The notes under the pieces: generated by a model | What the model was told of the DNA's origin: nothing | The model's database searches: none | The model's input: only the letters and a program-made list of their open reading frames with translations | Source of the DNA: an uncultured Candidatus Saccharibacteria bacterium | GTDB lineage: Bacteria > Patescibacteriota > Minisyncoccia > Phycocordibacterales > UBA918 | Length of the DNA stretch: 64,000 bases | Assembly: GCA_964469295.1 (NCBI GenBank) | Contig: CAYXYJ010000003.1 | Location: 12,595 to 76,594, forward strand | Direction of reading: 5' to 3' | Shown here: one piece after another, positions 355 through 62,534 of the stretch | How the letters are laid out: the number at the start of each line of letters is the position of its first letter | Numbering within the stretch: position 1 is the stretch's first letter | Program-made: the position numbers and the translations under genes

Positions 355-524
355 TGGAAACCATTATATAGGTAGACGGCGGGCAATGCCATTCCTTACG
401 GGTTGATTGGTATAAAAAGTGGCGGTCACCACCGTGATGGAAACCGCCTTGGTTTAGGGTGCTTTTGCACCCATCCCTGCAGCCAGGGATACCATTAAGT
501 ATATCAAACCTTCTCAGAAATACC

Positions 525-1448: not shown

Positions 1449-1502
1449 GTATACAGTTTACCAACACAAAAGCGACATCGCTGTCGCTTTTGTGTTGGTA
1501 AG

Positions 1503-1576
1503 TTGTCGGGGAGCCGAGAATCGAACTCGGACCACTCGGTCCCAAACCGAGCACACTACCACTATGCTACACCCCG
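1503..1576 (-). tRNA. tRNA-Pro (anticodon TGG); CCA not genomically encoded
   Basis: The reverse complement folds as a cloverleaf: acceptor CGGGGTG/CTCCCCG with one U-U mismatch at 6-67, a D-arm with GG, anticodon stem CTCGG/CCGAG with loop TTTGGGA (U33, anticodon UGG, G37), T-arm CCGAG-TTCGATT-CTCGG and discriminator A. It overlaps two spurious ORFs in the track. Confidence 0.8.
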
Positions 1577-27538: not shown

Positions 27539-27543
27539 TTACT

Positions 27544-28167: not shown

Positions 28168-28172
28168 AATGT

Positions 28173-29969: not shown

Positions 29970-29983
29970 TATACTAGTGACAT

Positions 29984-30634
29984 ATGGCCGAACCGCGCTA
30001 CCAAACTATCGATAGTGATTTTCGTGATGAGCAAGAAAAGCGAACTGGATTTGGCATCAGAAACGCTCAAATGCAAACCGGCAACGTACGCCAACAACCA
30101 AGACAATTAATGGCAGAAGAGGGGAAATCCCCAACACCAACCCGACCAGGGAAAATGAGTGTCCCAAAATCAAGCGCTTTCGGTAGTCCAAAAAAACTGG
30201 CGGTTAATCGAGCCAAAGCAACAGCCACCACCCTCCAAATCGTATTATGGGCCGTTGTGCCATCGTTTTTTGTGTTTATTGTCTGCATTGTTTGTTTAAT
30301 AACCTTTGGTGCCTACAATATGACCCCAACCTGGATTCAAGAAGGGGTAAACAAAGTAGCATATATACTCGGTTGGCAACAAGACGTCCTCCAAACGTTG
30401 TTTTGGATTACGTATATCATACAAATGGTAACGGTCCTTACTATCATGGCTGGTGTTGTTGCTCATTATTCCATTCGGGGTGTCCGGTGCTTGGGGGGAA
30501 GAGAGGCTGGTGTGTTTAAAAAAATGATTTTTGGCATGATGGCTGTTTTTTGTTTTATTCCAGGCACGCCGATACTTGTCATACCAATTTTTGGTACCTG
30601 TTGGATGTTATTGGTTTGCGCCTATCCCAACTAA
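29984..30634 (+). CDS. Hypothetical membrane protein (4 predicted TM helices)
   Basis: An N-terminal ~90-aa soluble basic region is followed by four hydrophobic helices. Confidence 0.4.
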   Translation: MAEPRYQTIDSDFRDEQEKRTGFGIRNAQMQTGNVRQQPRQLMAEEGKSPTPTRPGKMSVPKSSAFGSPKKLAVNRAKATATTLQIVLWAVVPSFFVFIVCIVCLITFGAYNMTPTWIQEGVNKVAYILGWQQDVLQTLFWITYIIQMVTVLTIMAGVVAHYSIRGVRCLGGREAGVFKKMIFGMMAVFCFIPGTPILVIPIFGTCWMLLVCAYPN

Positions 30635-30675
30635 CCACTCGTAGAGTGACTAGTCGATTGCTATACTTATGATGT

Positions 30676-31638
30676 ATGCGATTGTTATGTAGCCTGTTCA
30701 TTTTGATGTGGGTGTTGCCCCTGACTACCAACGCTCAATTTACGCAATCATTGTTTAATGAGCAATTTGCTATTTCGGTATCGCCACAATACCCGAATCC
30801 TGGCGACACCGTCACCGCAACAGTGAATGATTATTCACTTGGTGCTACTGGTGGTTCAATTGCCTGGTTTATTGACGGGAAAGCGGCTACATCAAGCGTG
30901 AACGCTCGATCAATCACCTTTATTGCGGGGGCACCACTTACTCCCACAACCGTGCGTGCTGATTTACGGCTCGGTACCGGGGAAGTATTAACTGCCTCAC
31001 AAACTATCGTCCCACGCTATCTCGATATCATTGTCGAACCACAGACATATGTACCACAATGGTATAGTGGTCGCGCTTTACCCACCAACGGATCTTTGGT
31101 GCGACTTACGGCACTGCTCCACGGCCAAAATGGCCCAGTTGACCATACGGCCTATACGTATACTTGGAAAGTAAATAATAATGTCATTGGCGGTGGTGGG
31201 GTTCGCGGTGGCTACCAAACCACTTACACCGTCCCGATTGGACAATCACACTTGGTATCTCTAGAAATTACCGATACTACCGGTCGGATGGTGAGTAAAA
31301 AAAATATCACAGTCGGTACCGGCGAAGTTGACGCAGTTTTATATGAAGCCAACCAACTCTATGGTCTCGGTCACCGGGCCATCGGGAATAATCGTGTCAT
31401 GACTGGAAATTCATTAACCATTGAAGCCGTTCCTTATAATCTTGATCTGCGAGCGTTATACGGCAACATTTTTACTGAATGGAAAATTAACAATCAAAAA
31501 GTCACTGAAGTGGGTAAAAGTCCTTTTACCATTACTCTCGGTCGACAGGGTTTTGGTGCGGTAACCTTAGGTTTCAAGGTACGAAATCCTGACGCCCTCC
31601 TCCAGGGTGACGAAGTCAGTACGGTATTACAATTTTAA
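30676..31638 (+). CDS. Hypothetical secreted beta-rich protein
   Basis: MRLLCSLFILMWVLPLTTNAQ is a signal peptide; 320 aa. Confidence 0.4.
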   Translation: MRLLCSLFILMWVLPLTTNAQFTQSLFNEQFAISVSPQYPNPGDTVTATVNDYSLGATGGSIAWFIDGKAATSSVNARSITFIAGAPLTPTTVRADLRLGTGEVLTASQTIVPRYLDIIVEPQTYVPQWYSGRALPTNGSLVRLTALLHGQNGPVDHTAYTYTWKVNNNVIGGGGVRGGYQTTYTVPIGQSHLVSLEITDTTGRMVSKKNITVGTGEVDAVLYEANQLYGLGHRAIGNNRVMTGNSLTIEAVPYNLDLRALYGNIFTEWKINNQKVTEVGKSPFTITLGRQGFGAVTLGFKVRNPDALLQGDEVSTVLQF

Positions 31639-31640
31639 TT

Positions 31641-32819
31641 ATGAAAAAGATTTGGCTTTTTATCCTTGGCGGTATCCTCATCATTGTATTGGGAGGATTT
31701 TGGATATACAGTTTTCTCTATGGCAGTACTAGTAACAGTAGTGCTGTCTTTACCGATTTTAATCTCTTTGGTGGCAATGACACCCCAATAGTCACCGAGC
31801 CACTGCCACCACCAGTCACGGAAACACCAACCGTTGATGTCGCCAGTGCACCATTGCGACAATTAACGACGAGACCAGTCATTGGTATGCGGGCGATTAC
31901 TGTTGGTACCACTACCGTTATGCGGTATGTCGAAGCGGGTACCGGACATGTCTTTGCGATTGATTTAACCACAGGCGCCGAAACGCGAATTTCACAAATT
32001 TCGGTACCGGTGGCTAGTGAAGCGGTGTTCAGTCCGAGTGGCCAATACGTCGCCATTCGTTCTGGGTACGATACCACCAACGAAGTGAGTGTTATCAATC
32101 TTGATGCCATGACGCCAACATCTACCGTTTTGCCGTACCAAATTGAAGATGTTACCTTCGGGTACAATAACCAACTGTGGTTTACCGAATTTGTGAGTGG
32201 TAAAACGGTTGGAAAACAGTACGACCCTACCACTCGGCTCACAACAAATTTATTCACTATTCCATTTACGGCCGTCACCATTGAATGGAGTACCAGCAGC
32301 AGTACACCGCACTACGCGTATACCAAACCAGCGCCAGATTTTATTGGGTATGGCTACGAAATTAAAAATGGTGGCATCGTGCGCCTACCCTATAGTGGCT
32401 ACAATGTACGACTTTATAGTGTCAACGCTGGACTGGTTATTACCAAATCAGAAGGGGTAAATGGCCAAATAGCAAGCTATTTCTATCATGGTGATGATAA
32501 CGGTAGCCGATCAGTCTATCCAATTTTGGGCCACGAAAAATGTGTGTCCCTGACTCGAACCGGAGTATTTTGCGCCACCAATGACAATACGTATCAAAAC
32601 AGCACTCAACTCACCCGCTGGAGCATGGGGGTATTGTCAAGTTCTGACACCTTGTATCAAATTGGTTTCAGCGGATCGGCACAACGGATATTGGAATTAA
32701 AAACGGAAACTGGTCGAGATATTGATGTCATGAATATGGACAAAACAATCGACGGGAAAATGGTATACTTTACCAACGCCAACGATAAAACCCTGTGGGT
32801 CTATGACATCGATAATTAA
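31641..32819 (+). CDS. Hypothetical N-terminally anchored extracytoplasmic protein
   Basis: KKIWLFILGGILIIVLGGFWIY is an anchor followed by a beta-rich domain. Directly follows the previous gene (TAATTATG). Confidence 0.4.
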   Translation: MKKIWLFILGGILIIVLGGFWIYSFLYGSTSNSSAVFTDFNLFGGNDTPIVTEPLPPPVTETPTVDVASAPLRQLTTRPVIGMRAITVGTTTVMRYVEAGTGHVFAIDLTTGAETRISQISVPVASEAVFSPSGQYVAIRSGYDTTNEVSVINLDAMTPTSTVLPYQIEDVTFGYNNQLWFTEFVSGKTVGKQYDPTTRLTTNLFTIPFTAVTIEWSTSSSTPHYAYTKPAPDFIGYGYEIKNGGIVRLPYSGYNVRLYSVNAGLVITKSEGVNGQIASYFYHGDDNGSRSVYPILGHEKCVSLTRTGVFCATNDNTYQNSTQLTRWSMGVLSSSDTLYQIGFSGSAQRILELKTETGRDIDVMNMDKTIDGKMVYFTNANDKTLWVYDIDN

Positions 32820-33945
32820 CCGCGGTACATTTTTTGTAGCTGGCCTCATTACCATTATCTGGTGTGGTTTTTTTACTGTAGCTTTGGCTGCTGACTATGT
32901 ACCACTCGTGAATATCCCGGCGGTCGCCAACCCCAACAACATCAACGACTATATTAACGCGTTATATAATTTATCGATTAGTATCGCGGCCTTGATTGCG
33001 GTGGTCAAGATTGTTATCGCTGGTGCCAAGTGGATGTTTGGAAGTACTTCGATTAGTAGTATTCAAAGTGCGAAACAAGACATTCAAAATGCGTTAATTG
33101 GGTTGTTGATTATTATTGGTGCCGTGTTGATTCTAAATACTATCAATAGCGATTTGACCAACCTCACCATTTTTGATGAAAGTGATAGGGTAGTGGTAAA
33201 TGATACGCCGTCCAATGGTTTGTTTGTCACTATGGATCAAATAAAGGCAGCTTGTGAAGAAAATCCTGAGGCTATGGATTGTAGCCTGGAAATACGTTGC
33301 AATGACAATGACATTGGTAACTTCATTTTTGGTAGCGCGTTTTGGGGAAATATGGAATATATAACTAATCCCAACGATATTAGCTTAAGTTGTGGAGTGA
33401 TTTGCAAAAACATCGGTGGATATATGGATTACGGCTTGGCAATAGACGGAACAGACGCAAAGTGCCATATCAGTAAAACTTTAATGAACAATTTAATTAG
33501 CGACTATTTTGAAAAATTAGTGACAGATCAATGCTCATCTGGACGGGTTGATGGTGAAATCTGTCAGATTGAACTTTGTAGTGAACACGACTTAAACAAT
33601 AATACCTACAATGGAAATAGCCAACAAGATTTTAGTAGATGCGAAGCAGAATGTCTAGAAGAAAGACAGGGCTCTTATTTTGACACTCGTAGTGGTGCTT
33701 GTATATTTACGGGTGATTATTACCTGACCGAGGAAGAATGTTCGGAACGCGTTCATATGACCTGGTCTGACGAAGAAAATGTTTGTTATGACCAAACCAC
33801 GACTCAAAGCATTGCGTGTGATTTCTTTGAAAGTACTGGTACCTATGATTGTAGTATAGCGAGAGGCGAGTGTATTGATAATACTGATGTACCAGGAACA
33901 CCAGTTACCGCTGCCGACGGGCGATCTATTTACTGTGTACAGTAG
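32803..33945 (+). CDS. VirB2/TrbC-like pilin-type module fused to a ~260-aa Cys-rich extracellular domain
   Basis: Signal peptide ending ALA-ADY, then two hydrophobic helices (LSISIAALIAVVKIVIAGAKWMF and ALIGLLIIIGAVLILNTI). This is the classic T4SS pilin topology in the first ~125 aa. A domain with more than 20 Cys follows (CEENPEAMDCSLEIRCNDND...CIDNTD...). Overlaps the upstream gene by 17 nt. Confidence 0.4.
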   Translation: MTSIINRGTFFVAGLITIIWCGFFTVALAADYVPLVNIPAVANPNNINDYINALYNLSISIAALIAVVKIVIAGAKWMFGSTSISSIQSAKQDIQNALIGLLIIIGAVLILNTINSDLTNLTIFDESDRVVVNDTPSNGLFVTMDQIKAACEENPEAMDCSLEIRCNDNDIGNFIFGSAFWGNMEYITNPNDISLSCGVICKNIGGYMDYGLAIDGTDAKCHISKTLMNNLISDYFEKLVTDQCSSGRVDGEICQIELCSEHDLNNNTYNGNSQQDFSRCEAECLEERQGSYFDTRSGACIFTGDYYLTEEECSERVHMTWSDEENVCYDQTTTQSIACDFFESTGTYDCSIARGECIDNTDVPGTPVTAADGRSIYCVQ

Positions 33946-45432: not shown

Positions 45433-45479
45433 AAACGACAAACGCGGACGGCCCAAAGGGCCGTCCGCGTTTGTCGTTT
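45433..45479. terminator. Terminator aaacgacaaacgcggacggccc-aaa-gggccgtccgcgtttgtcgttt
   Basis: A perfect 22-bp palindrome directly after the pilB stop. Confidence 0.8.
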
Positions 45480-47209
45480 TACACGATGTGAGAAAAAAAG
45501 TCGTCATCATGGTCATCGCTTTTTGTATCCGTCACGACGCGCCGACTTTGATTAACATCAACAACCCGTTCCAATTCGTCAAACGTCGTCAGGCCAGATA
45601 ATACTTTAATTAATCCATCTTGAAGCATGGTGGGAATATGTTGTGGCAAGGCTGCGTCAAGTATCATGTGTTCTCGTGGGTCACGAATGACAATGTCTTC
45701 CACTCGATCATCCATCGCAATAGCTTCAAATACGCCGACCCGACCAGAAAATCCAGTATGACCACACGCATCACAACCGACACTGTCGTACACCACCGTA
45801 TGACCATCTATTGTTACTGGCTCGGGGTAAGAACTCAGTGCTTTTTTTGCCATGGTAATTTCTTCGGTTGAAATTACTCGGGGTTTTTTACAGTGTTCAC
45901 AGAGAACGCGAACCAAACGTTGCCCTAACATAATATTAAGTGAACTACTAATAATACGAGGGTCAACGCCTAAATCAATTAAGCGAGGGAATCCACCGGC
46001 GGCGCTGTTGGTGTGGAGGGTAGAGAAGACAAGGTGTCCCGTTTGAGCGGCGTGAATCGCCGTTTCCGCTACTTCACGATCACGGATTTCGCCAATCATA
46101 ATGATATCGGGGTCTTGACGTAAAATCGCTCGCAAGCCTGACGCAAAAGAATAATCTGGACCGGTTTGGGTTTGTACAATACCATCAAGTTTATATTCAA
46201 CCGGGTTTTCAATCGTAATGATTTTTTTCTCACTATCATGTACCGCCCGTAAAAAGGCATACAGCGCAGTGGTTTTTCCGGAACCAGTTGGGCCGGTGGT
46301 AATAATGAGTCCGTTTGGACGTTTTAACTCTTGTTCCATTCTGGCCCGTAAAAACGGATTAAGGGCCAGTTTATCCATACTGAAACTGGCTACTCCCGGA
46401 TCAAGTAATCGCATAACGATTGATTCGCCGACAGCGCCCGGAATGATTGAACTACGTACTTCAATGGCTCGTTCGCCAAACACAAATTCAAACCGACCAT
46501 CCTGGGCTTCTTTCCGTTCGTTTAGCCGCATGCCCGACAGTAATTTCAAACGTGACATCAAGCGACCGTACAAATGATTGTCAATAGTGGCGACATCTAA
46601 AAGCACACCATCAAGACGATATCGTAAACGAATATGTTGTTCGGTTGGTTCAATATGAATATCTGAAGCACGCAACGCGAGGGCTCCGGCAAACATCAGT
46701 TCGAGAGTTTCGGAAATGCGGCGCGGACTATTAATGCGTGATACCGTATCAATAGCGGTGGCGACATCCTCGATGTTTTCCATGGTATGTGCGCGTCGCA
46801 AAATATCATCAGGATTGATATCCAATACCCCTTTTTTGCTTGCGGTGGTGGTTTTTTGGTCAGCATATCGGGCCAATCCGTGATCAATACTGGCGGTAGA
46901 GGCGATGTGGGGTAGCACGGTAAAGCCCTTTTTTTCTAGGAGCGCCAAGGCGGCTTTGGTAGCAGTATCATTCGGGCGATTAACTGCTACTGACAAAGTA
47001 TTCCGCATTAACGCAAAGGCCACCAGCCGTGATTCTTTGGCAGTTCGTTCAGGAATTTTCATGAGTGCTTCGGGATTGATGGTGACACCAAATAAATTGA
47101 CATACGGAATCCCGTACTGTGGTGCCAGGGCACGCAAATATTCTTCTTCGCCCCGTTTTCGTAAATCAGCGATGTGCGAAAGAGCGTTTGTATCATTAAA
47201 ATCTACCAT
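45479..47209 (-). CDS. Type II/IV secretion system ATPase GspE/PilB family
   Basis: N-terminal T2SSE_N-like domain, Walker A GPTGSGKTT, Asp box, Walker B, and a CxxC...CxxC tetracysteine motif (CEHCK...CDACGHTG); 576 aa. No other pil or gsp genes adjacent. Confidence 0.85.
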   Translation of the reverse strand: MVDFNDTNALSHIADLRKRGEEEYLRALAPQYGIPYVNLFGVTINPEALMKIPERTAKESRLVAFALMRNTLSVAVNRPNDTATKAALALLEKKGFTVLPHIASTASIDHGLARYADQKTTTASKKGVLDINPDDILRRAHTMENIEDVATAIDTVSRINSPRRISETLELMFAGALALRASDIHIEPTEQHIRLRYRLDGVLLDVATIDNHLYGRLMSRLKLLSGMRLNERKEAQDGRFEFVFGERAIEVRSSIIPGAVGESIVMRLLDPGVASFSMDKLALNPFLRARMEQELKRPNGLIITTGPTGSGKTTALYAFLRAVHDSEKKIITIENPVEYKLDGIVQTQTGPDYSFASGLRAILRQDPDIIMIGEIRDREVAETAIHAAQTGHLVFSTLHTNSAAGGFPRLIDLGVDPRIISSSLNIMLGQRLVRVLCEHCKKPRVISTEEITMAKKALSSYPEPVTIDGHTVVYDSVGCDACGHTGFSGRVGVFEAIAMDDRVEDIVIRDPREHMILDAALPQHIPTMLQDGLIKVLSGLTTFDELERVVDVNQSRRVVTDTKSDDHDDDFFSHIV

Positions 47210-52159: not shown

Positions 52160-53434
52160 TTACCCTAATTCAGCCAAGATTTCTTTTGCCACTGCAGCGT
52201 CACTCCAAGGGATTTTGGAATTATTGGCCCCCATAATATACGGATCAGTACCTTTCCCGGTGATAAGGACATACCCACCATCAGGAACCATTTCGACTGC
52301 TTGTTTAATTGCCTCACGACGATCCATGATGATATCGAGTTTACTCTTATCTTCGATTCCTTTCGCCATTTGTTCAACGATTTGCCGCGGGTTTTCATCA
52401 TATGGATCTTCGTTGGTGAGGATAATATGGTCACAATATTGTTCGGCAATGTGAGCCATTTCGGGACGCTTCCAGCTGTCTCGACCGCCGCCACAATTAC
52501 CAAGGACACACACTTTTGGTCCCTGCGGAAACGCTTGATAAAACTGGGTTAACGAATCTGGGGTATGCGCGTAATCAACCACGGCGGTGACGTGTTTTTG
52601 GGCTGTCTCACTCGTATAAAAATGTTCTACCCGACCGTGAATTGGTGGCAGATTACGCAAGGCTCGTTCGATGGTTTTCATCGGTATACCGTACGCGGTG
52701 GCAATGGTCACTGCCGCCAGAGCGTTATAGACATTAAATAATCCAACGAGCGGGACCCGGATAGTGGTACCGTCAATCACAAACGTCACACTGTCTTTGT
52801 GTAGTGAATGTAATGAGAGTCGCCCCAAATGATACGGTAGTTTCTGTTCAACCGGGAAGTCGAGGAAGTCTTGACCGTGCTCATTATCAGTATTGGCAAC
52901 AATATACCGTGGACGCTTTTTAGATACCGCCACGGCTTCGGCAAGACGTAATTTACAGGCTTTATAATTCGCAAATGAACCATGTGATTCGATGTGTTCG
53001 GGACTGAGATTGGTAAATACCAAGGCATCAAAATCAATAAATTTGTGCCGAAATTGTCTGGCTCCTTCGGAGGTCATTTCGAGGATGGCATATTGGCACC
53101 CGGCATCGACCGCTTGGCGCAAAAACCGTTGCACAAAAAATCGTCCGGGCGTCGTCATCTTGTAGAGGTTACGTTCGTGGGTATCGCCAATACAAAATTG
53201 AATAGTTGAAAGCGAGGCCACAAACGCGCCACTTTCACGGAAAATGTGAGCGATGAGTTCGGTGGTGGTTGATTTGCCTTTGGTGCCAGTAACAGCAATC
53301 ACTGTGATGTGCCGACTTGGGTGGCGGTAGAGAGTCGCACCCAACCACGCCAAACTATAATGATAGCCCGGCCGCAACAGCTTCAATACGCCTTTTGGGA
53401 GGACTTTTTTTACGTAGTACAAAATCGAATCCAT
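52160..53434 (-). CDS. Mur ligase family protein, probable UDP-MurNAc-tripeptide synthetase (MurE-like)
   Basis: P-loop AVTGTKGKSTT, Mur ligase middle-domain motifs, and C-terminal DHIILTNEDP; 424 aa. Shorter than typical MurE. Confidence 0.6.
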   Translation of the reverse strand: MDSILYYVKKVLPKGVLKLLRPGYHYSLAWLGATLYRHPSRHITVIAVTGTKGKSTTTELIAHIFRESGAFVASLSTIQFCIGDTHERNLYKMTTPGRFFVQRFLRQAVDAGCQYAILEMTSEGARQFRHKFIDFDALVFTNLSPEHIESHGSFANYKACKLRLAEAVAVSKKRPRYIVANTDNEHGQDFLDFPVEQKLPYHLGRLSLHSLHKDSVTFVIDGTTIRVPLVGLFNVYNALAAVTIATAYGIPMKTIERALRNLPPIHGRVEHFYTSETAQKHVTAVVDYAHTPDSLTQFYQAFPQGPKVCVLGNCGGGRDSWKRPEMAHIAEQYCDHIILTNEDPYDENPRQIVEQMAKGIEDKSKLDIIMDRREAIKQAVEMVPDGGYVLITGKGTDPYIMGANNSKIPWSDAAVAKEILAELG

Positions 53435-53593
53435 ATTTATATTTTATATATAGTATACGCGTAATTATGCGTGCGGTCACGTCGGTGGTGAAAATTGGTC
53501 ATGATTAAGGAATCAGTGTTAAAGTACACTCGTAAAAACCAAAAACCTGCATCATTGCTGACGCAGGTGGTGGGTGGGGGCTAGCCCCCACCC

Positions 53594-53941
53594 TTAGTTC
53601 GTGGTCGTTGCCGGTTTCGGAAGCAGGTCGGGAACCGGTTCGTAGACGTCGAACCGGAAGCCGTCGCGGGTGGTTTGTCCAGCGAGGCGGAAGGTAGCAA
53701 TCCTCCCGTCTGCCATCGACCCGCGAGTCGGCGGCAGGGTAATGTTTCCGCAGACGTCGGCGACGACCGGGATTTCGATCAGATCGAAATTGGGGAAGGT
53801 ATCGCCAGCCGGGGCGAGAAAGGTGTACTCGGCCGGCTCGTTCCAGGTGCAAGCGGCGCTGTCCGCGAGGGTCAGCGCCGCGGCGGTTTCGGTGCTGATG
53901 GTCGCAGCCATGAGCACCGTGGTCAGAAGCAGATGCTTCAT
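53594..53941 (-). CDS. Small secreted hypothetical protein in a GC-rich (~62-65%) island
   Basis: MKHLLLTTVLMAATISTETAAALTLA is a signal peptide. GGAGG RBS 5 nt upstream of ATG (53939-53941). Terminator hairpin gggtggggg-ctag-cccccaccc at 53564-53587. Surrounding DNA is ~35-45% GC. Two conserved Cys. Confidence 0.55.
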   Translation of the reverse strand: MKHLLLTTVLMAATISTETAAALTLADSAACTWNEPAEYTFLAPAGDTFPNFDLIEIPVVADVCGNITLPPTRGSMADGRIATFRLAGQTTRDGFRFDVYEPVPDLLPKPATTTN

Positions 53942-54050
53942 TTGGTCCTCCAAGAGCTCGCTAGACCATCGCGGACACCACAGGTGTGGGCCGGACTAGC
54001 GATTGAACATATTATATACCATATCCTAGACATTTTGTAAAGTACCTTGT

Positions 54051-55025
54051 TTGGTGTGCATAAATATGGCGATATTTTACGCCGTAATTTCGTATACTTA
54101 CGGTATGGATATCGATACATCAGACGCAGTGATTTATGAAAAGAAACAGCTCCCTAAAGGGGTAAAAAAATGGGGATTTATTATCATTTGTACCGTTGGA
54201 GTAGTCGCTGCGTTGTGGTATGGCTGGCGGTGGAATAGCGAACGGGAAATCACCGCTTTGCAGGAAGGTCTCTCACTGGTTGAAGTACCCCCAGAGATGA
54301 TTCACCAGCAACCGGTAGGATATTTGGTGTATGAAGCACCGGATAATTTTTTACCTAAATCACTGGCCGAGCAATTTAACATGATGCCGGGTGAAACTAC
54401 GAACCTAGCGAGTGAAGACGATGAAGAATTGTCTCTCGTGCGTGATAATGACGATGCTCCAATAATTGCGAAAACTACTCCTGAATTGCCAAAACTGTGG
54501 TGGATGCGTGATATCCGTAACAATCTCGATATTCAGGTTGCTGCTGACGACGTCCGGCTAGAAACAACCAATAATTGGTCTATTGAAAATGGTGCCGTGA
54601 TGCGTCGTAACGATGACGGCACGGTGGCGTCGTATGTGCGCGAGGGCGACAATACGCCATTGACGCACTCACTCATCACATCCTCATATGATGAGAGTTA
54701 TATATTTGTAGCCAATCAGCAAATGAATACGCTTACGGTGTATGCGGTGGATCCAGAAAGACCACTCTTGCCGTTGGTCTATACGACGACAGTCGCGCAT
54801 GGCGATATTGTATCAATAACAACCGCACCGGATTTAAATCGGGTAGTCATCGTCACGACCAATAAAATCGGCACTTTCCTTTCGTATTATGATGCGTACA
54901 GCGATCGGGTGATTAAACAAGAACAGTTAGCAGATATGGCCACTCCGGTGACATTATTGGATTGGGTAACAATTAATCCTGTCGCTTCAGATTTACTTGA
55001 AGTAATTGAAGTGGAAGGAAATTAA
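54051..55025 (+). CDS. N-terminally TM-anchored extracytoplasmic beta-rich protein (hypothetical), module copy 1
   Basis: KWGFIIICTVGVVAALWYGW is an anchor. Stop overlaps the start of the giant gene (TAATG), indicating translational coupling. Confidence 0.45.
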   Translation: MVCINMAIFYAVISYTYGMDIDTSDAVIYEKKQLPKGVKKWGFIIICTVGVVAALWYGWRWNSEREITALQEGLSLVEVPPEMIHQQPVGYLVYEAPDNFLPKSLAEQFNMMPGETTNLASEDDEELSLVRDNDDAPIIAKTTPELPKLWWMRDIRNNLDIQVAADDVRLETTNNWSIENGAVMRRNDDGTVASYVREGDNTPLTHSLITSSYDESYIFVANQQMNTLTVYAVDPERPLLPLVYTTTVAHGDIVSITTAPDLNRVVIVTTNKIGTFLSYYDAYSDRVIKQEQLADMATPVTLLDWVTINPVASDLLEVIEVEGN

Positions 55026-57922
55026 TGTATGACTATTGTATGCGTATTTTAACTGAAAAATTTTCCGTTGCCTTTATTATCATGGTGCTGCTGGTACCTT
55101 ACATTACCTATGCATATCCAGCGGGAACACCTTCTTGGGATGATTGGGATGGTGATGGTAATCGATGGACTCATGGTGAAGATAATGATGGTTGGACTTC
55201 GTCTGGAGGTGGTGGTGGAGGTGGAGGTGGGGGGAACAACAATAATCCTCAAACTGTTGAAATTGATAGAAATCTCGGTACAACAGCTAATGTGCAAACA
55301 AATCGTCCGGGCGCAGATTACGTTTTGAGTCATACTCAAGTAATCAATGGTAGAACTTACCAAATATACGATTATACAGGAACCGTACGACCAGTGTTAC
55401 CAGGACAATCAAATCCTAATCCAGCCGGTTTTGTTGCTGTATTAATAAATGATAATAATGATAATGGTCACAGTTGCTCAGCATCGCGTCCCAATCTGGT
55501 GATTGAAGATATTTACCTAGTCCGTACTTCTTCTTCGAGCGAGGATGTGGATGAAGTTAATCTCGGTACAGATATCGAATATCGTCCGTATGCAATTGTA
55601 CGTAATACTTCATGTAAAAGCACAAATAGTTCTGGAAATAATCTTAGCTTACCAAGTGTCGCAGCGAGCGGTTCATTTCCTGTACGACTCCGCATTGATT
55701 ACAACAGTACTGATACGGCCAATCCATCATATGAGTACACCGAACAAATTGGTTTTGTTGGGCCGCTTGGGGGAAACATGAGCATGGCGGTAGCTTTTGA
55801 TCCAGTGACATTTACGAGTTTAGCGAGTCATGTATTTCAGGTGACTGCCGACCCTATTGCCAATCAGCAAAGTTTTGAGACCTGCACGGGCGGTGTGGGG
55901 TGTATCCGGGAAAGTAATGATACTGATAATACTCGCACTGAAACGTTCCGCACAACGCCACCAAGTGTGACGGTTGGGTCGTTTGTGTGGAGCAGTAATG
56001 TGCGTTTAAGTAGCAGTAACAACTATTGGACGACCTGGGATCATTTGACGACACCAGTTCGTGATATGGTCGCCCGGCCGCTCGCCAGTAGTGATCACGA
56101 AGTGGGAATTTATTGGATTGGGAATAAGGTTAATCTCGACCAGTGTACCGGTGTTGGTATTAATAATGATTTGCGTAATACCGCCGATTGGTGGCGAGTG
56201 AATTGGACGGGTTCTAACCATAGTGAGTCAAGATTTTGGGCTGGCCGCAGAGCTAGTGGCGCGTATCCATCGTGGCCAATGGGCTTTTGGTCGGGTGGTG
56301 ACAATTGGGACATTCGGCCGGTGGGGGGGACGATGGAGCAAAAATTAGCGTTTGCTGATAATAAAATCTTTTGGCGGGGTAGTGAGCAATACCATCGGAC
56401 GATGGCAGTGTTTGTGAACCGTGGCTTCCGTCAGGCGGTAGCGGCGGGTAATTATCATGAATATACCGTAACCTGTCCGGCCTATAATGGATCGACGGTA
56501 TCTGATACCCATATCGTCCGGAATGGGACGAGACCGGGGGTGACGTTACCAGTGTCTCTTCAGCCAAATTTACCCGACGTGACAGTGACAGCGGGAGAGG
56601 TGGTAGACCGAGTGCCATTTACGATTCAGAATAATGGGGCGGAAGCCATTTCGGGGATGACCTACACCCTCACTATTAATGGAGTAGCGGTGCATACGGT
56701 AGCGAGTAGTTCACGGGTCACCGCTGGCGGATTATTATCTACTCGTCCGGTAGTGAATTGGACGGCGCCAAATAACGCCCGAAATGTACCCATGGAGTTG
56801 TGCGTGAATCACCCGGGGCGAGCGACGACAACTCCAATCTGTGATCGAGGGGTGATAACAGTTACGGCTGTTCCGACTCACCCATTATCGTGCGATACAT
56901 TCACCATCAGTGACAATACATTAGAAGCTGGCCAAACCGCGACGGTGACTTGGTCAACCAGTAACGCTACATTTGCTACACTACAAGATACGTTAAATGG
57001 CACAACAATGATGGTGGGTGCTAGTGGAACTAGTCCGGCTATCATCTTCAGTCAGAACGCCAATCTTCGTCTCACTGCTTTTCGCGGAGCTGAACGACAA
57101 TCATGTCCAGACATTTTTGTTCAGGTGACTCCAGCGACCAACCCAGATCTCGCGGTAGCAAATTTCACAATTTCTACCTGTACGGATGAAGTGGCAACCA
57201 ATTGCCCAACTACCACTTGGCAGGCAACGGTGCAAAACATTGGTATTACCGCTACCCAGACAGCGCCATATGTACTGCAACGTCGCGTCGGTCCGGCGAC
57301 CTGGACAACCGTAGCGACGGGTAATATTCCCGCATTAGCCATCAGCGCGTCAACGCAAATCAGTGGCACTGTACGCAATATTGTTCCTGGTAATTATGTT
57401 TGGCGGGTGATCGTCAACGAGCCAGAACGGTATCCGGAAGAAACTCGGGCGAATAATATTAGCAATCCGGTTAATTTCATCATCACGCAAATACGAACAC
57501 CGCAATGTAGCGATGGTGATGATAATGATGGTGACGGCTATACCGACCGTAACGATTCTGGCTGCCGTCCCAATCCTAATGAACCGGAAGGACCAACAAA
57601 CACCTACGATCCCGACGACGATTCCGAAGCCGTCGTCGATAATCCCCAAATTACTATTACGGCCAACCCTGCTATTATCCGGTATGGTGATACGGCGACA
57701 ATTGAGTACAGTATTAGTAATCCTAATCCACTGACGTGTACCATGACTGGTCCCGGTATGCCTACAACCATTACCTATCCAGGCAATGTTGGACCAAGTG
57801 AAGCGTTGCAAGGAACGCATATTTCTGCACCACTGACGAGTACCCAAACATTCACTATTACCTGCGGCGCTACTCGAGCTCAGACTACTGTGGAAGTGAT
57901 TCCACTCGCACAGGAAATTTAA
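55025..57922 (+). CDS. Giant secreted surface protein (965 aa) with Gly10 linker, beta-sandwich repeats, CARDB-like domain and Ca-binding-like CSDGxDNDGDG motif, module copy 1
   Basis: N-terminal hydrophobic signal; SSGGGGGGGGGGNNNN; CARDB-like PDLAVANFTISTC...NIGITAT...; PQCSDGDDNDGDGYTDRNDSGC. The last ~33 aa are encoded by sequence identical to the 3' end of 59739..62519. Confidence 0.55.
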   Translation: MYDYCMRILTEKFSVAFIIMVLLVPYITYAYPAGTPSWDDWDGDGNRWTHGEDNDGWTSSGGGGGGGGGGNNNNPQTVEIDRNLGTTANVQTNRPGADYVLSHTQVINGRTYQIYDYTGTVRPVLPGQSNPNPAGFVAVLINDNNDNGHSCSASRPNLVIEDIYLVRTSSSSEDVDEVNLGTDIEYRPYAIVRNTSCKSTNSSGNNLSLPSVAASGSFPVRLRIDYNSTDTANPSYEYTEQIGFVGPLGGNMSMAVAFDPVTFTSLASHVFQVTADPIANQQSFETCTGGVGCIRESNDTDNTRTETFRTTPPSVTVGSFVWSSNVRLSSSNNYWTTWDHLTTPVRDMVARPLASSDHEVGIYWIGNKVNLDQCTGVGINNDLRNTADWWRVNWTGSNHSESRFWAGRRASGAYPSWPMGFWSGGDNWDIRPVGGTMEQKLAFADNKIFWRGSEQYHRTMAVFVNRGFRQAVAAGNYHEYTVTCPAYNGSTVSDTHIVRNGTRPGVTLPVSLQPNLPDVTVTAGEVVDRVPFTIQNNGAEAISGMTYTLTINGVAVHTVASSSRVTAGGLLSTRPVVNWTAPNNARNVPMELCVNHPGRATTTPICDRGVITVTAVPTHPLSCDTFTISDNTLEAGQTATVTWSTSNATFATLQDTLNGTTMMVGASGTSPAIIFSQNANLRLTAFRGAERQSCPDIFVQVTPATNPDLAVANFTISTCTDEVATNCPTTTWQATVQNIGITATQTAPYVLQRRVGPATWTTVATGNIPALAISASTQISGTVRNIVPGNYVWRVIVNEPERYPEETRANNISNPVNFIITQIRTPQCSDGDDNDGDGYTDRNDSGCRPNPNEPEGPTNTYDPDDDSEAVVDNPQITITANPAIIRYGDTATIEYSISNPNPLTCTMTGPGMPTTITYPGNVGPSEALQGTHISAPLTSTQTFTITCGATRAQTTVEVIPLAQEI

Positions 57923-58084
57923 TCACAATTACCTAACATCAACCGCCTGTTCTGGAGAGAACAGGCGGTTGATGTTATTCGTTCATGAGTAAGAGATTTC
58001 GTAAGATCAAAGATATAAAAATCACACCAATGAAAGTGTGATAGTGGGGGTGCGGGCGGTGCGAATGCATCGCCCGCAATGCGC

Positions 58085-58396
58085 TTAGAGCAGGCACTCA
58101 TCGCGCTGCGAGAGCGCGATGTAGCCCTTGACCTCACCGTCTTCTTGAAGAGCGAAAACGATGGGATGGCCATAGTGACCCCAGTCTTCGATGGCCGCCG
58201 CCGCAGCCCAGGCCATTTCTTCGGTGTCGAAGATGACATGGGTCCGGCCACGGCCGTCAACGAAGTCTTGAGACAGGGCAACGATATGCCCCATGTCACC
58301 GGCGGTCAGACACCGCACCGGGGCATCGGCAGCCACGGCGGTAGCAAAGGTAGCGGCGAAGAGTGTCGCCACCATGGCAGTGAAGGCGTTATTCAT
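58085..58396 (-). CDS. Small secreted hypothetical protein in a second GC-rich island
   Basis: MNNAFTAMVATLFAATFATAVAADA is a signal peptide. AGGAG RBS 7 nt upstream. Local GC is far above flanks. A GC hairpin lies downstream at ~58058-58080. Unrelated in sequence to the 53594 gene. Confidence 0.5.
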   Translation of the reverse strand: MNNAFTAMVATLFAATFATAVAADAPVRCLTAGDMGHIVALSQDFVDGRGRTHVIFDTEEMAWAAAAAIEDWGHYGHPIVFALQEDGEVKGYIALSQRDECLL

Positions 58397-58642
58397 CTTC
58401 TTCTCCTAGGAACTCGTCGGATCGCTGTAATAGCTATAAAGAAATTACCCGACGATTGAACTTATTATATAGCACACATGTATTGATTTGTAAATACTGC
58501 ACTTATATATTGAGGTGTTTTGGTAGTTATTTAATTTTGTCACGGACAGCGCAGATTGAAAGTGGATAATGATTATATTGGGGAGTCATAATCGTTATAC
58601 TGGAGTTAATAACACTAACAGCGTTAATTCCATTACTATATT

Positions 58643-59737
58643 ATGAACCCCGAAACTGATGCCGCATTTAGCGGCGAACGAATCAAACTCACTCCAGGCG
58701 AACGTTTTCGTCAAATTGTCATGGTGGTGGGAATAGTTTTGCTCGTCATAGTTGGAGCCAGTAGTTGGTATGTGTGGCACTGGCAACAGACACAGCCAGT
58801 TACGGTGATTAGCCATGGTCTCGAAGAGACCCAGGTGCCAACTAAAAATTTTCTAGTTGGGCAACTGTATTTTAGTGCTATCAGATCTGATGATGACACT
58901 GCTGCACCGTATATATACAAGAAAGATTTCACTGACGATTATATAAATCGAGCATTTGATTTTTCTGCTCTTTCTTATGCGTACAGCAATACACAATACG
59001 ACACAATGGTGACATATATTAATGAATCAGTTGATCCTGATGGACTGCAATTAATTTGGAGAGATCGGCAGACGGGAGAAACTGGGACGCTACCTCGCCT
59101 TACGGGATATTCGGAAATGGAATTAACGGTTTCACCAGATAATATTTATTACGCCTATTCTTATCTTGAAACTGCAGCTAAAAATCCTTCCCAACTAACT
59201 GATTGGGATATAGTACTGATAAATTCTGATACGTTAAAAATTACGGTGGTTAACGGAGCCATGGAACCGCACTTTACTGCTAATGGAAAGTATTTGTACT
59301 ACATGAAAACTGACGGTATTTACCGATATGATATTGAAACAGAGACTCACACATTGGTAAGTAATATCTATCAAGATCTGACTCCAATTGATGATTACAC
59401 TATTTCTGATAATGGTAATGTGCTGGTATTTACTTCACCATCACTGCGTACTATTTCGATACAAGAATTAGATGCAGAGGGGCACAGCACTGAAGTTGGC
59501 GCTGAAGTCGGGGTCGCGGTGCGGTATCGTCAACCGATGATGAGTCCGGATGGAGAAACGTATATTGTGATGGTCGCTAGAGATAACGATTTTGATACTA
59601 CGACACAAACGTATCATACGGTTTTCGGCGAGATTCGTTCATTGTATGGCAAAACAGTTCTTGATACTGTGCCATTTACGGGATTTGTACCTGGTTCGGT
59701 ACAGTTAAATGAATGGAGAGATGATATCCAAAATTAA
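58643..59737 (+). CDS. N-terminally TM-anchored beta-propeller-like protein (hypothetical), module copy 2
   Basis: FRQIVMVVGIVLLVIVGASSWYVW is an anchor. It is rich in Y/D/T repeats (PD40/TolB-like impression only). Stop TAA is 1 nt before the next ATG. Confidence 0.45.
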   Translation: MNPETDAAFSGERIKLTPGERFRQIVMVVGIVLLVIVGASSWYVWHWQQTQPVTVISHGLEETQVPTKNFLVGQLYFSAIRSDDDTAAPYIYKKDFTDDYINRAFDFSALSYAYSNTQYDTMVTYINESVDPDGLQLIWRDRQTGETGTLPRLTGYSEMELTVSPDNIYYAYSYLETAAKNPSQLTDWDIVLINSDTLKITVVNGAMEPHFTANGKYLYYMKTDGIYRYDIETETHTLVSNIYQDLTPIDDYTISDNGNVLVFTSPSLRTISIQELDAEGHSTEVGAEVGVAVRYRQPMMSPDGETYIVMVARDNDFDTTTQTYHTVFGEIRSLYGKTVLDTVPFTGFVPGSVQLNEWRDDIQN

Positions 59738-59738
59738 T

Positions 59739-62519
59739 ATGAAAAATCACCATATGAAACTTAAAATATTTTTTTTCGCCATCTCAGCCATTATTGTGCT
59801 TAGTGTTACTCCATCAAACGCACTCGCTACTGTTGGTGGCCCAACCGAAGTAGGACAAACTGGGTCGGTAACAAATGACGGTTACTTTCAAAATTTTGAT
59901 ACCGGACGAGAACATCTCATTCAATCATCATACGATCAGGCTCGTGATATGGGGAATGTGATTGCGGCAGCCACGGGTCATAATGTCGTAACAGTTTTTG
60001 CGTTGCAAAATGCACGTACTGGAGCCATTCAAGGTTATATTGTTGTGACTCGGTATGTGCCACCAATCGCCACGAGCGGCAGTCGGGATGATGACACTTG
60101 CGATAGTGCTCCCGGTGTAGGATTTAGAGACGATTCAATTAGATTTATCCGTATTACTGATGGGATGCCGGTTGATCGAACGGCGTTATTAACCAATGTA
60201 CCGTATCGCGTGACCGCGGGTGTACAAAACAGTAATTGTTGGCCAACCAATGGTATTTCTCGGTACCACTATAATGACAGCGCGTGGTATACCGGTACGG
60301 AATTTGTCCGTATTAATAATCCGGCTCAATCGTATGGGCAACCACCAGCTAACCGTGGAAACACACCGTATCGTAACCAATTACCGTTTGGTGAAAATGG
60401 TACATTTCCAGTGGAAATCCAAATTGATGAAGGTGACAATGGATCAGTGGATACACGAATGAGCATTAATCAAGTCGGTCCACTTGATGGACAAAGTGGT
60501 TCTAAAACGCATATGATTGCTACAGATAGCAATCTCGACACCCCACGGCAATATCCCTATGAACATTTCTATGTGCACCCGAATACGCTTGATGTGCCAA
60601 CCGGGTACACTACCTTAAATATAAACTCACTCGATCCAACCGAGGGGACTTTTACGCATTCAATGTGGCGATCGCTCCCGTTTGCAGATAGTCGTTGGCG
60701 TATGGGTCCTGGGATAACGGTGATTTCACCAGTGGTGGAATTTGATACAGCCACCACTGGTCGGGTGCGGGCGTACACTGATGTGGGTTGTGGCGGATCA
60801 TTTGGGTGCATCGTTGGGAGTTCAGATGGACAAGGGTTGGATTTTCGAGTGCTTGGTGCACCACAAATAACATTGGGATCGTATATTATTGGGAATAACA
60901 CAATTACTGACGTCAGTACGCGTGAACGACGAGACGTTACTGCCGGACAACAAATTGGTTTGTATTGGAGCGGGAGCAATGTTGATGTAAGTACCTGTAC
61001 TGGTCGAGTGCGATTAGAAAATGGCAGTACCGACAACGATTTTACGGCAGTTGGTGATACGACTGGCCTGACCGCCAATCAGTTGTTACTTATCCCCGCT
61101 AATACCAGTCGTATTGATTCCACTATTACTGAACCGACGACACAATACCGAACATATACCATTACCTGTGGCGTGGCTGGTGGTGGAGATACTGTGTCTG
61201 ATAGTATTATTTTATCCAACGGACCATTATCAGCTACGGTGCAACTTGACCCATTACTGGCAAATATGAGTGTGGCGTATCCCGATACCATCACTTCTAT
61301 TCCGTTTCGTGTACACAACGCTGGGACAATTGGGGTAAATAACTTTACCTATACCTTCACCATTGATGGCCAAACGTATCCGTCTGGGGCGTTTGCTGGT
61401 AGTTTACCAATCGCTACTAATTCTGACGTTTTGTATGGTGTAGTTAATTACCAAGTACCGTTGCGTGATGATGATACGTATACCATCCCAATGCGAGTCT
61501 GTGTGCAGCGTCCACAAATGACTACTGAACAATGCGACAATGCGACAATTACCGTGACCGTGGGGAGTACTATAGCTTCAGAATGTAGCGATGGTATTGA
61601 TAATCTGGATGAGGAAGATACTCTGGCCGATGCGGATGATCCGGGATGTTGGACCAATCCAACTGACCCAATGACGTATTATCCACAAGACACTTCCGAA
61701 ACGAATAATCGGGTTGATACAGCAGTGCCGGATTTGTTGGCAAGTGTTCGACCAATTGATGACTGTACCACCAATACTACTACCTGCTCGATGACGTATC
61801 GCGCTCGTATCAGTAACCTTGGTACCGCCACACCGGTAGGCGAACCGATTCCATATGTTTTTGAACGTCGTCTACGACCAACTGGTGCGTGGCAAACGAT
61901 ACAGACAGGAACCATAATCAATACTATCAATCAAGGAAATTACCGTGATGTCACATTCACTGAAACGTTGACTCTCGGTAATTACGAAGTGCGGGCCCGA
62001 GTAAATCAACCAACACCAAACAGTAATCTTCGAGAAACCATATTCACGAATAATACGAGTGGTCCGGTAGCGTTTACCGTGATGAGGGATGCTATCCCGC
62101 AGTGTTCTGATGGAGTGAACAATGACGCTCCCGAAGATACGTATATCGACGCCGCCGACCCTGGTTGCTGGGCGAGTTCAACCGATTCAACAACATATGA
62201 TCCAAATGATACTACCGAGTCGTTAGTTGTCGCGCCAACCATTACTATTTCGGCACGGCCACAAATCGTACGGTACAACGACACTGCTTCAATTACCTAC
62301 ACTATCAGAGGGGTGAATCCGGTGTCCTGTCAATTGACTGGTCCCGGTATACCGACAGCATCCATATCGTATCCAACGGTAGCCTCTGGCATAACCAATA
62401 CCATTACGGGAACGCACATTTCCGCACCACTGACGAGTACCCAAACATTCACTATTACCTGCGGCGCTACTCGAGCTCAGACTACTGTGGAAGTGATTCC
62501 ACTCGCACAGGAAATTTAA
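59739..62519 (+). CDS. Giant secreted surface protein paralog (~927 aa) with CARDB-like domain and two CSDGxDN...DPGC motifs, module copy 2
   Basis: Start set at MKNHHMKLKIFFFAISAIIVLSVTPSNALA (signal peptide). The track start 59709 overlaps the upstream gene. CARDB-like PDLLASVRPIDDCTT...; motifs SECSDGIDNLDEEDTLADADDPGC and PQCSDGVNNDAPEDTYIDAADPGC. C-terminus identical to 55025..57922. Confidence 0.55.
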   Translation: MKNHHMKLKIFFFAISAIIVLSVTPSNALATVGGPTEVGQTGSVTNDGYFQNFDTGREHLIQSSYDQARDMGNVIAAATGHNVVTVFALQNARTGAIQGYIVVTRYVPPIATSGSRDDDTCDSAPGVGFRDDSIRFIRITDGMPVDRTALLTNVPYRVTAGVQNSNCWPTNGISRYHYNDSAWYTGTEFVRINNPAQSYGQPPANRGNTPYRNQLPFGENGTFPVEIQIDEGDNGSVDTRMSINQVGPLDGQSGSKTHMIATDSNLDTPRQYPYEHFYVHPNTLDVPTGYTTLNINSLDPTEGTFTHSMWRSLPFADSRWRMGPGITVISPVVEFDTATTGRVRAYTDVGCGGSFGCIVGSSDGQGLDFRVLGAPQITLGSYIIGNNTITDVSTRERRDVTAGQQIGLYWSGSNVDVSTCTGRVRLENGSTDNDFTAVGDTTGLTANQLLLIPANTSRIDSTITEPTTQYRTYTITCGVAGGGDTVSDSIILSNGPLSATVQLDPLLANMSVAYPDTITSIPFRVHNAGTIGVNNFTYTFTIDGQTYPSGAFAGSLPIATNSDVLYGVVNYQVPLRDDDTYTIPMRVCVQRPQMTTEQCDNATITVTVGSTIASECSDGIDNLDEEDTLADADDPGCWTNPTDPMTYYPQDTSETNNRVDTAVPDLLASVRPIDDCTTNTTTCSMTYRARISNLGTATPVGEPIPYVFERRLRPTGAWQTIQTGTIINTINQGNYRDVTFTETLTLGNYEVRARVNQPTPNSNLRETIFTNNTSGPVAFTVMRDAIPQCSDGVNNDAPEDTYIDAADPGCWASSTDSTTYDPNDTTESLVVAPTITISARPQIVRYNDTASITYTIRGVNPVSCQLTGPGIPTASISYPTVASGITNTITGTHISAPLTSTQTFTITCGATRAQTTVEVIPLAQEI

Positions 62520-62534
62520 TCGATAAAGAGCACA

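Follow-up and report, generated by a model that had tools for sequence, protein, structure and literature searches.

The window analysed in this work is a stretch of 64,000 nucleotides (nt) from contig CAYXYJ010000003.1 of assembly GCA_964469295.1, deposited under the name of an uncultured Candidatus Saccharibacteria bacterium, and our subject is a short minus-strand gene in this window whose guanine plus cytosine (GC) content stands far above that of its surroundings. This gene and its GC-rich stretch are referred to here as island 1. An initial annotation, made from the letters without database searches, had described a compositional island at 53560-53960, and this description is confirmed: the GC content of the stretch is 63.8%, that of the adjoining 400-bp flanks is 44.0% and 42.5%, and with z = +4.5 island 1 is the top GC stretch of the 64 kb (400-bp windows: mean 44.9%, standard deviation 4.2%), i.e. 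a strong outlier. Between 53551 and 53990 the values run at 62-65% against a background of 45%. In 50-bp windows the edges fall at ~53545 and ~53995, which means that the GC-rich stretch corresponds to the transcribed unit. The GC content of the 5' untranslated region (UTR) is 0.61, that of the 3'UTR 0.67 and that of the promoter 0.26, so that at the transcript start a few bases suffice for the drop from 0.61 to 0.26; a second drop lies just past the terminator.

The open reading frame (ORF) of island 1 has GC values of 0.60, 0.52 and 0.78 at the first, second and third codon positions (GC1, GC2 and GC3), whereas the 41 window genes of at least 150 residues have a GC3 of 0.42±0.05 with a maximum of 0.54. 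The sliding-window and codon-usage check that had been proposed for the island thus comes out in its favour, and since the excess is also found at synonymous sites it is not solely an effect of amino acid content. Smaller statements of the initial annotation needed correction. The sample 53601-53660 contains 37/60 G+C rather than 39/60, and 54061-54120 contains 20/60, i.e. 33% rather than ~35%. Every frame had been said to be open on both strands; four of the six are largely open, but the other two contain 4 and 5 stops.

Read along the minus strand, the sequence elements show a monocistronic, self-contained gene with a predicted transcript of ~460 nt and a near-consensus, AT-rich promoter. 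The promoter and transcript-start motif, TTTACAAA-N15-TATATAATA-TG-TTCAATCG, occupies 54000..54041 and includes a -10 box TATAAT at 54011-54016; the transcription start site is predicted near 54003. This region has a GC content of 26% and is conserved in two further loci, L001, a 938-bp contig with the homolog P0001, and L087, a cassette from the JGI metagenomes. It is followed by a 5'-proximal leader stem-loop at 53958..54002 (UCGCUAG...CUAGCGA, with an inner CCACA/UGUGG hairpin), which is predicted in both the window and L001 and was also recovered as the inverted repeat I5. The strong ribosome binding site (RBS) GGAGGA at 53946..53951 lies 4 nt before the ATG and reads GGAGAA in L001. The coding sequence (CDS), 53594..53941, starts with the ATG at 53941 and comprises 348 nt including the TAA stop (53594-53596), encoding a precursor of 115 residues. 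Directly after the stop there is a perfect GC hairpin at 53572..53593 (GGGUGGGGGCU/AGCCCCCACCC; inverted repeat I2, 11+11 nt, 100% complementary), which is kept in L001; the fold z-score of the 3' region is -5.9. The terminator scan places an intrinsic terminator at 53535..53568, with a stem ACCUGCGUCA...UGAUGCAGGU followed by UUUUUGGUUUU; its 10-bp stem at 53545-53568 and the T-run TTTTTGGTTTT are what is expected of an intrinsic terminator, and in L001 the stem carries compensatory changes (CCCCACCA/UGGUGCGGG).

The initial annotation had assigned to the minus strand a gene with RBS, ATG, signal peptide and GC hairpin terminator, and every one of these elements was found. Searched against Rfam, the window gave tRNAs alone at the gathering threshold, and in E-value mode island 1 had one chance match to a microRNA (E 0.34). 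An integron cassette was considered and rejected, as each cassette has its own promoter and no attC-like site was noticed on reading the sequence, a formal attC search not having been made.

The precursor begins with MKHLLLTTVLMAATISTETAAA. Its predicted signal peptide of ~22 residues (53876..53941, minus strand) consists of the n-region MKH, the h-region LLLTTVLMAATI and the c-region STETAAA, with an AXA-type cleavage site before LTLADS. The precursor passes a hydropathy-based signal-peptide heuristic, and the homolog P0001 has the same AXA motif (AVA before LP). In the mature part the hydropathy maximum stays below the threshold for transmembrane (TM) segments, i.e. no further TM segment is seen. 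The first cysteine lies 15 residues past the h-region, and its L-x-x-C context varies among the homologs; a lipoprotein reading was rejected, there being no conserved lipobox. The protein is rich in Ala, Gly, Pro and Arg and poor in Lys, Asn and Ile. The invariant positions among the homologs include C31, C64, Y39, F41, FP49-50, PP70-71 and R73, and the family motif shared by P0001, P0003, P0006 and the window protein can be written as Y.F.A..G..FP...I.V....C...T.PP.RG plus two invariant cysteines. The secondary structure in the AlphaFold2 (AF2) model comprises five beta strands, at a predicted local distance difference test (pLDDT) score of 50-62. The mature protein of ~93 residues is thus modelled as beta-rich with two conserved cysteines, and from its sequence we would expect it to be exported, disulfide-stabilised and active outside the cell. 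Pfam, NCBIfam, PHROGs, PADLOC, the PDB sequence profile and PDB folds contained no family for it.

That several frames are open and that the transcript is predicted to be highly structured might suggest that island 1 is not a protein-coding gene, but a structured non-coding RNA, an assembly chimera or a gene in another frame. We regard this as extremely improbable. Third-position GC periodicity is found in the minus-strand frame only, and the comparison with L001 gives a non-synonymous divergence (dN) of 0.19, a synonymous divergence (dS) of 0.94 and a ratio (dN/dS, omega) of 0.20, which confirms this frame. The homologs, 37-74% identical, share the cysteine and motif columns, the same locus occurs in independent assemblies, and Rfam has no match. 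The non-synonymous rate is about twice that of the neighbouring gene murE, yet the protein is constrained. In other words, island 1 is almost certainly a real gene for a secreted protein.

The relatives of this protein are few. HMMER, run exhaustively over 1.84 billion cluster representatives (of ~15 billion proteins), returned only three real ones, P0001, P0003 (109 residues) and P0006 (111 residues including the signal peptide), and in a word-indexed search of 5.8 billion clusters P0001, with 73% identity, was the sole homolog. A profile search with the four-member alignment gave no further members. Four other matches, P0002, P0004, P0005 and P0007, are long repeat proteins in which short stretches matched by low complexity or repeats, and they were discarded as spurious. 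We note that P0006 as deposited is without its true N-terminus; the full ORF (480-815 of L003) starts with TTG and has a signal peptide. The promoter in L003 resembles that of the window (TATGGTATATACTATATTCAAC, then a hairpin), and nearby, at 976-1251 on the minus strand, L003 contains a second small signal-peptide protein of 91 residues with ordinary GC content. All four members of this orphan family are GC-rich (GC3 0.59-0.78) in flanks of lower GC; for the distant members P0003 and P0006 the gene GC is ~0.57-0.61, again with lower flanks.

The closest relative, L001, is syntenic with the window: murE again comes after the homolog, the gene is likewise GC-rich, and promoter, leader and terminator are conserved. 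Between the two loci murE has a dS of 1.20 (88% amino acid identity) and the island gene one of 0.94, values near enough to each other to indicate that the gene has been in place since the two lineages split. The alignments thus show a gene under purifying selection that has been resident upstream of murE for at least as long as its lineage has been separate from that of L001. Its GC3 is 0.78 in the window and 0.73 in L001, and where the amino acid is identical, both copies end in G or C at 54 codons and in A or T at 8. How far amelioration should have gone was estimated roughly with a two-state model, taking 0.42 as the equilibrium GC3 of the host, ~0.5-0.6 synonymous substitutions for each site and lineage, and ~80% of these between weak and strong bases. 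Even if GC3 had begun at 1.0, it would by this estimate now be at most ~0.64; the values actually kept, 0.73-0.78, imply that the high GC content is being maintained.

These data bear directly on the proposal that island 1 is a candidate for host-derived transfer from Actinobacteria. Horizontal transfer from a high-GC donor, whether an actinobacterial host or another organism, with a composition not yet ameliorated, would account for the strong contrast at all three codon positions and for the Ala/Gly/Pro/Arg-rich, Lys/Asn/Ile-poor protein. It would also account for the distribution among related genomes. The question whether orthologous loci lack the island has a divided answer: the gene is present at the same locus in L001 and absent from 80 more distant loci, whose MurE proteins are at most 75% identical. 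On the other hand, the homology search that had been suggested for the 115-residue product gave no homolog from Actinobacteria or any other high-GC organism, neither among the 1.84 billion representatives nor among the 5.8 billion clusters. All homologs lie in low-GC flanks with promoters of the type seen in Parcubacteria, i.e. homologs of similar GC do occur in related low-GC genomes, which the initial annotation had itself named as grounds for refuting its proposal, and the same-locus ortholog is unameliorated in spite of a dS like that of murE. At island 1 there is no integrase or transposase nearby, there are no flanking direct repeats and no tRNA junction; the nearest tRNA gene, for tRNA-Lys, is 2 kb off with two genes between. 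A search of IMG/VR gave no relative of the protein of island 1 or of that of a second island described below, and no copy of their promoter motif. Transfer from a high-GC donor with composition not yet ameliorated therefore seems unlikely to us, and that island 1 is not a recent actinobacterial acquisition can be said with considerable confidence.

A different kind of GC island was seen in L009, a Parcubacteria locus of 47% GC: an ORF of 207 residues (644-1267, minus strand) without a signal peptide and with a GC3 of 0.85. It is a better candidate for a real horizontal transfer or a prophage remnant.

The identity of the organism also speaks against an actinobacterial host. The downstream neighbour of island 1 and the anchor of its synteny is murE (UDP-MurNAc-tripeptide synthetase; 52160..53434, minus strand), which matches Pfam Mur_ligase_M and Mur_ligase_C, and TIGR01085 with 330 bits. 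With its protein we retrieved 80 loci (L004-L083) from GTDB species genomes, all of them Patescibacteria, and the best matches (70-75% identity) carry the labels Ca. Kaiserbacteria, Paceibacteria or Parcubacteria. The synteny downstream (spoU, a gene of 244 codons, polA) is kept across these 80 Parcubacteria loci. Judged by murE and polA, the genome is that of a Kaiserbacteria-like Parcubacterium within the candidate phyla radiation (CPR, Patescibacteria) and not of a Saccharibacterium. The premise that the organism is an epibiont of Actinobacteria finds no support: murE and polA place it near Ca. Kaiserbacteria and Paceibacteria, a lineage not known to live on Actinobacteria, and nothing ties the genome to such hosts. 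The wider context of island 1 contains polA, a spoU methylase gene, murE, ruvA, a gene for a PilB-type ATPase and tRNAs, in other words an ordinary chromosome.

The second-highest GC peak of the window (58026-58425) belongs to a sister cassette, island 2, at 58010..58494 on the minus strand and 4.5 kb from island 1. It has the same parts in the same order: a promoter motif (58453-58494), a 5' hairpin (58414-58455), an RBS (58400-58406), an ORF of 103 residues (58085-58396; GC3 0.69), a GC hairpin after the stop (58051-58078) and a terminator stem (58021-58042), all on the minus strand. The protein has a predicted signal peptide and two cysteines, which lie close to the two termini of its mature part. 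The proteins of the two islands show no detectable similarity, and the sole database match of island 2 is a 100%-identical fragment, L084, which comes from the same genome as assembled from another run (ERR2586216). The motif TTTACAAA-N15-TATANAATA-NN-TTCAATCG has 24 specified bases and occurs exactly twice in the window, once in each island, while no occurrence is expected by chance. A relaxed version searched against the JGI metagenomes gave four matches, three by chance in AT-rich DNA and one true cassette, the above-mentioned L087. There, promoter and TTCAATCG agree with those of the islands and are succeeded by a hairpin, an RBS and a GC-rich ORF with a signal peptide, which is truncated by the contig end. 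The boxes of promoter and leader are conserved while the spacers between them are not, and the 5' stem covaries on a conserved UCG...CGAG base: UCGCUAG/CUAGCGA in island 1, UCGUCGG/CCGACGA in island 2 and UCGUUGG/CCGACGA in L087. A native promoter and leader common to non-homologous cassettes is a further point against a foreign origin of island 1. What speaks for transfer is that the L087 cassette (1-179) lies directly downstream of an ORF of 429 residues (271-1560, minus strand) with an N-terminal Pfam HTH_28 domain, which is transposase-like. It might indicate that cassettes of this sort can be mobile; the window itself contains no homolog of that ORF, nor any other transposase homolog in a test for phage or mobile origin.

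Both islands stand divergently upstream of a pair of plus-strand genes, one for a TM-anchored protein and one for a giant CARDB-like protein. Next to island 1 these are 54051/54117-55025 and 55025-57922, the latter encoding a surface protein of 965 residues; together they form the module 54051..57922, in which Pfam CARDB, Lactonase and PD40 are weakly matched. This module is paralogous to 58643-62519, which adjoins island 2. The two giant surface proteins (~950 residues) are 37% identical (E 4e-65), and their last 32 residues are identical. Going by position, the partner of the island 1 protein is probably this divergent module of membrane-anchored and giant surface proteins, at the cell or host interface.

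Four of the related loci, L006, L052, L077 and L035, have a small signal-peptide gene with two cysteines in the slot that island 1 takes up in the window, oriented in the same way and with murE on one side and a module of this kind on the other. The products bear no relation to the island 1 protein, and the GC content of their mature parts is 0.56-0.61 against locus medians of 0.41-0.46. Between L006 and L052 the dS is 0.23 for both the slot gene and murE (omega 0.21), so that the slot gene has been co-inherited with murE. In other relatives the slot is empty or occupied by a multi-TM gene. That different small genes occupy the slot upstream of murE in different genomes would fit transfer as well. 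For island 2 and the slot proteins of the relatives no family was found in Pfam, NCBIfam, PHROGs, PADLOC or the PDB sequence profile. The island 2 protein weakly resembles the slot protein of L077 (23% identity, pairwise E 2e-5), a likeness that is not claimed as homology.

Small secreted-protein genes were collected from the window and the 80 loci with a heuristic for ORFs of at most 170 residues that lie apart from long ORFs and have an RBS, an n-region with K or R and an uncharged h-region. Fourteen small signal-peptide ORFs were selected, most of them with two cysteines; island 2, which has no K or R near the N-terminus, was missed. In 9 of the 14 the GC3 is at least 0.15 above the median of the long genes of the same locus, as opposed to 1.1% of 437 long ORFs (Mann-Whitney p 6e-5). 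Two cassettes of a Kaiserbacteria genome lie in tandem in L031 (10077-10960, minus strand), where consensus promoter (TTGACA-N17-TATAAT), hairpin leader and AAGGAGGCCAAACCAATG start region are near-identical over ~90 nt although the ORFs differ, and a related genome has a cassette similar to this pair (L034 10041-10380). The promoter/leader modules seem here to have been duplicated or homogenised independently of the ORFs. Other GC islands in the related loci are mixed and are not known RNAs, so a GC island is not always a secreted mini-gene.

The bias is not the codon preference of highly expressed genes, since the ribosomal protein genes for S15 and S20 in the window have GC3 values of 0.35-0.37. 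The enrichment is specific to signal-peptide proteins with two cysteines, and GC-ending codons are a minority in this genome (mean GC3 0.42). These two facts would suit a gene of ancient foreign or de novo origin whose GC content is kept for reasons other than RNA, e.g. rare GC-ending codons that slow translation for Sec export and disulfide formation. However, GC3 is not raised in the genes for the large secreted proteins found in these loci (0.40 for the 965-residue and 0.38 for a 936-residue protein), and neither the GC-rich UTRs nor the excess of mRNA structure over synonymous permutations, described next, is accounted for in this way. We consider an explanation by rare codons or a similar non-RNA cause improbable.

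The folding of the messages was investigated by comparing the minimum free energy of the CDS of eight cassettes with that of synonymous-codon permutations in which protein sequence and codon counts are unchanged. Every cassette has a z-score below zero (-4.5, -1.4, -2.7, -2.5, -3.9, -2.1, -2.3 and -2.7), while 36 chunks of ordinary window genes used as controls average -0.2±1.1, a single chunk reaching -2 or lower (p 4e-7). In absolute terms the CDS of island 1 folds at -145 kcal/mol, and ordinary 345-nt chunks at -92±11. A stricter swap that keeps every dinucleotide count, and changes only ~7% of the bases, gave a mean z of -1.35 for 11 cassettes (10/11 negative) as compared to -0.08±0.86 for 20 controls (p 0.001). 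The excess of structure, the 5' stem-loop, the double 3' hairpin and the fact that the limits of high GC coincide with the transcript together point to selection on the RNA. That the high GC content of island 1 derives from selection at the RNA level, i.e. on mRNA structure or stability, is a conclusion from indirect evidence which we would put slightly below an even chance; the message may then be long-lived and possibly slowly translated. Transfer leaves this excess of structure unexplained.

GC-biased gene conversion at a recombination-prone cassette, in which small surface or secreted genes of rapid turnover would be swapped often between strains and a repair bias would raise GC3, has to be weighed against these same data. 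It would agree with the turnover of cassettes in the same slot among relatives, with 98 identical nt in the 3' ends of the giant paralogs, with the near-identity of the tandem promoters and leaders in L031 over ~90 nt, and with UTRs that are GC-enriched as well as the CDS. Nevertheless, the GC content drops exactly at the transcript start and after the terminator, which fits a transcript-level constraint better, and the flanking murE and TM-protein genes show no rise of GC3 at their near ends. Moreover, gene conversion does not predict codon arrangements that raise fold stability over synonymous permutations. We hold this explanation to be unlikely too.

The best explanation, to which we give about an even chance, is that island 1 is a native, self-contained mini-gene for a secreted protein in a Kaiserbacteria-like Parcubacterium, whose GC content is maintained, probably for the sake of mRNA structure or stability. 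The GC content of 63% would then be a maintained property of the transcription unit rather than the footprint of a recent transfer, a property that would be shared by the second cassette with the same promoter and leader and by most small secreted-protein genes of the related genomes. The GC-rich codons would be arranged in a manner that makes the mRNA unusually structured, and the structured body, the 5' stem-loop and the two 3' hairpins would jointly render the message long-lived, slowly translated, or both. A wider version is more tentative and in our opinion has rather less than an even chance: in Kaiserbacteria-like Parcubacteria there may be a dedicated class of mini-genes for small two-cysteine secreted proteins in which the whole unit is driven to high GC and excess structure by selection on the mRNA, the shared promoter and leader defining a small regulon of hyper-stable messages. 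Such messages could supply factors of the surface or of host interaction in cells with very few ribosomes.

Several observations weigh against the explanation by native, maintained GC content. A dS near 1 obtained from 115-118 codons is imprecise. The absence of the gene from the 80 more distant loci makes its gain by transfer at some point possible, and the fact that GC1 and GC2 are raised as well, with an amino acid make-up like that of a high-GC organism, would also fit an ancient foreign origin. Our home-made heuristic may favour GC-rich ORFs, and the sample of 11-14 cassettes is small. The stricter shuffle weakens the structure signal, with a positive z for the cassette L031a, and the L001 ortholog reaches only -0.7 to -1.4. 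Finally, the searches of folds and families gave no match for the island 1 protein, and the pLDDT of its AF2 model is low.

Some further features of the window were recorded. The giant surface-protein genes 55025-57922 and 59709-62519 share 98 nt of 100% identity at their 3' ends (57827-57924 and 62424-62521), which suggests either that gene conversion took place recently or that a C-terminal signal for sorting or anchoring is conserved. In their proteins a long stretch of glycines, e.g. SSGGGGGGGGGGNNNN (55025-55330), comes after an N-terminal signal or TM segment, and this poly-Gly feature recurs in homologous genes upstream in L005, L077, L004 and L013. In front of murE (53435-53480) there is a TATACT/TATAAT-like box ~7-12 nt before the ATG and an RBS is not visible, i.e. 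the gene is seemingly leaderless or nearly so; the same arrangement is seen just before position 6001 in L006, L052, L077 and L035. The MurE protein is without the N-terminal Mur-ligase domain, its TIGR01085 match beginning at model position 67. Farther off, more than 20 kb away, co-oriented genes at 27128-33945, among them an ORF of 598 residues and several genes for membrane or secreted products, form a candidate cluster for type IV secretion or a pilus-like structure, and the PilB-type ATPase is encoded at 45479-47209.

Small orphan proteins with Sec signals have been described in ultra-small bacteria before. McLean et al. 2020 (PMC7427843) report arrays of 4-6 small hypothetical proteins with Sec signals beside the type IV secretion system homologs VirB4/B6/B2 in Saccharibacteria and other CPR bacteria. 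The resemblance lies in small orphan Sec-signal proteins of ultra-small CPR bacteria with a presumed role at the interface with host or cell; in contrast to the arrays, the genes described here are single and monocistronic, stand beside murE and modules of giant surface proteins, and have no sequence similarity to the arrayed ones. As far as its accessible text goes, that paper reports no anomaly of composition or mRNA structure.

With a classical acquired genomic islet, island 1 has in common a sharp deviation of GC and GC3, a patchy distribution and a distance of ~2 kb to a tRNA gene. It differs in that donor, mobility genes and flanking repeats are missing from what was searched, the promoters are native, and the gene is found unameliorated at the same locus across a saturated synonymous divergence.

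In model bacteria, mRNAs are stabilised by 5'-terminal stem-loops, as in the ompA leader of E. coli, and by 3' hairpins, which protect them from 5'-end-dependent and 3'-exonucleolytic decay. By analogy, the stem-loop at or near the 5' end of the island 1 message and its stable 3' hairpins, in a transcript for an exported protein, would be predicted to protect it from decay. Unlike the ompA-type stabilisers, to which it has no sequence relationship, island 1 is GC-enriched and over-structured throughout its coding body. A looser analogy can be drawn with the effectors of eukaryotic symbionts and pathogens, which are likewise short, cysteine-stabilised, fast-evolving orphans with signal peptides and a lineage-specific turnover; the island 1 protein is however a bacterial Sec substrate with two cysteines only, and the likeness is one of analogy alone. 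In the literature, which was covered incompletely, we found no report of GC-enriched, over-structured mini-genes in the CPR and no relevant link between GC3 and secretion.

Genes of deviant composition are commonly taken for transfers, and in the CPR such calls serve to guess at hosts. Island 1 is long resident, has no donor in the searches made and belongs to a class of similarly constructed genes; a host-derived reading of it would mislead. If the wider version given above is true, native and selected shifts of GC3 by +0.25 to +0.35 can affect a class of genes, and such islands in CPR genomes would be misread as horizontal gene transfer. Should GC content and codon arrangement be selected for mRNA structure or stability in this class of genes, it would mean an unusually strong selection at the RNA level that overrides the mutational bias of the genome, and it would point out a set of probably abundant secreted orphans as candidates for the biology of the cell surface and of host interaction in Parcubacteria.

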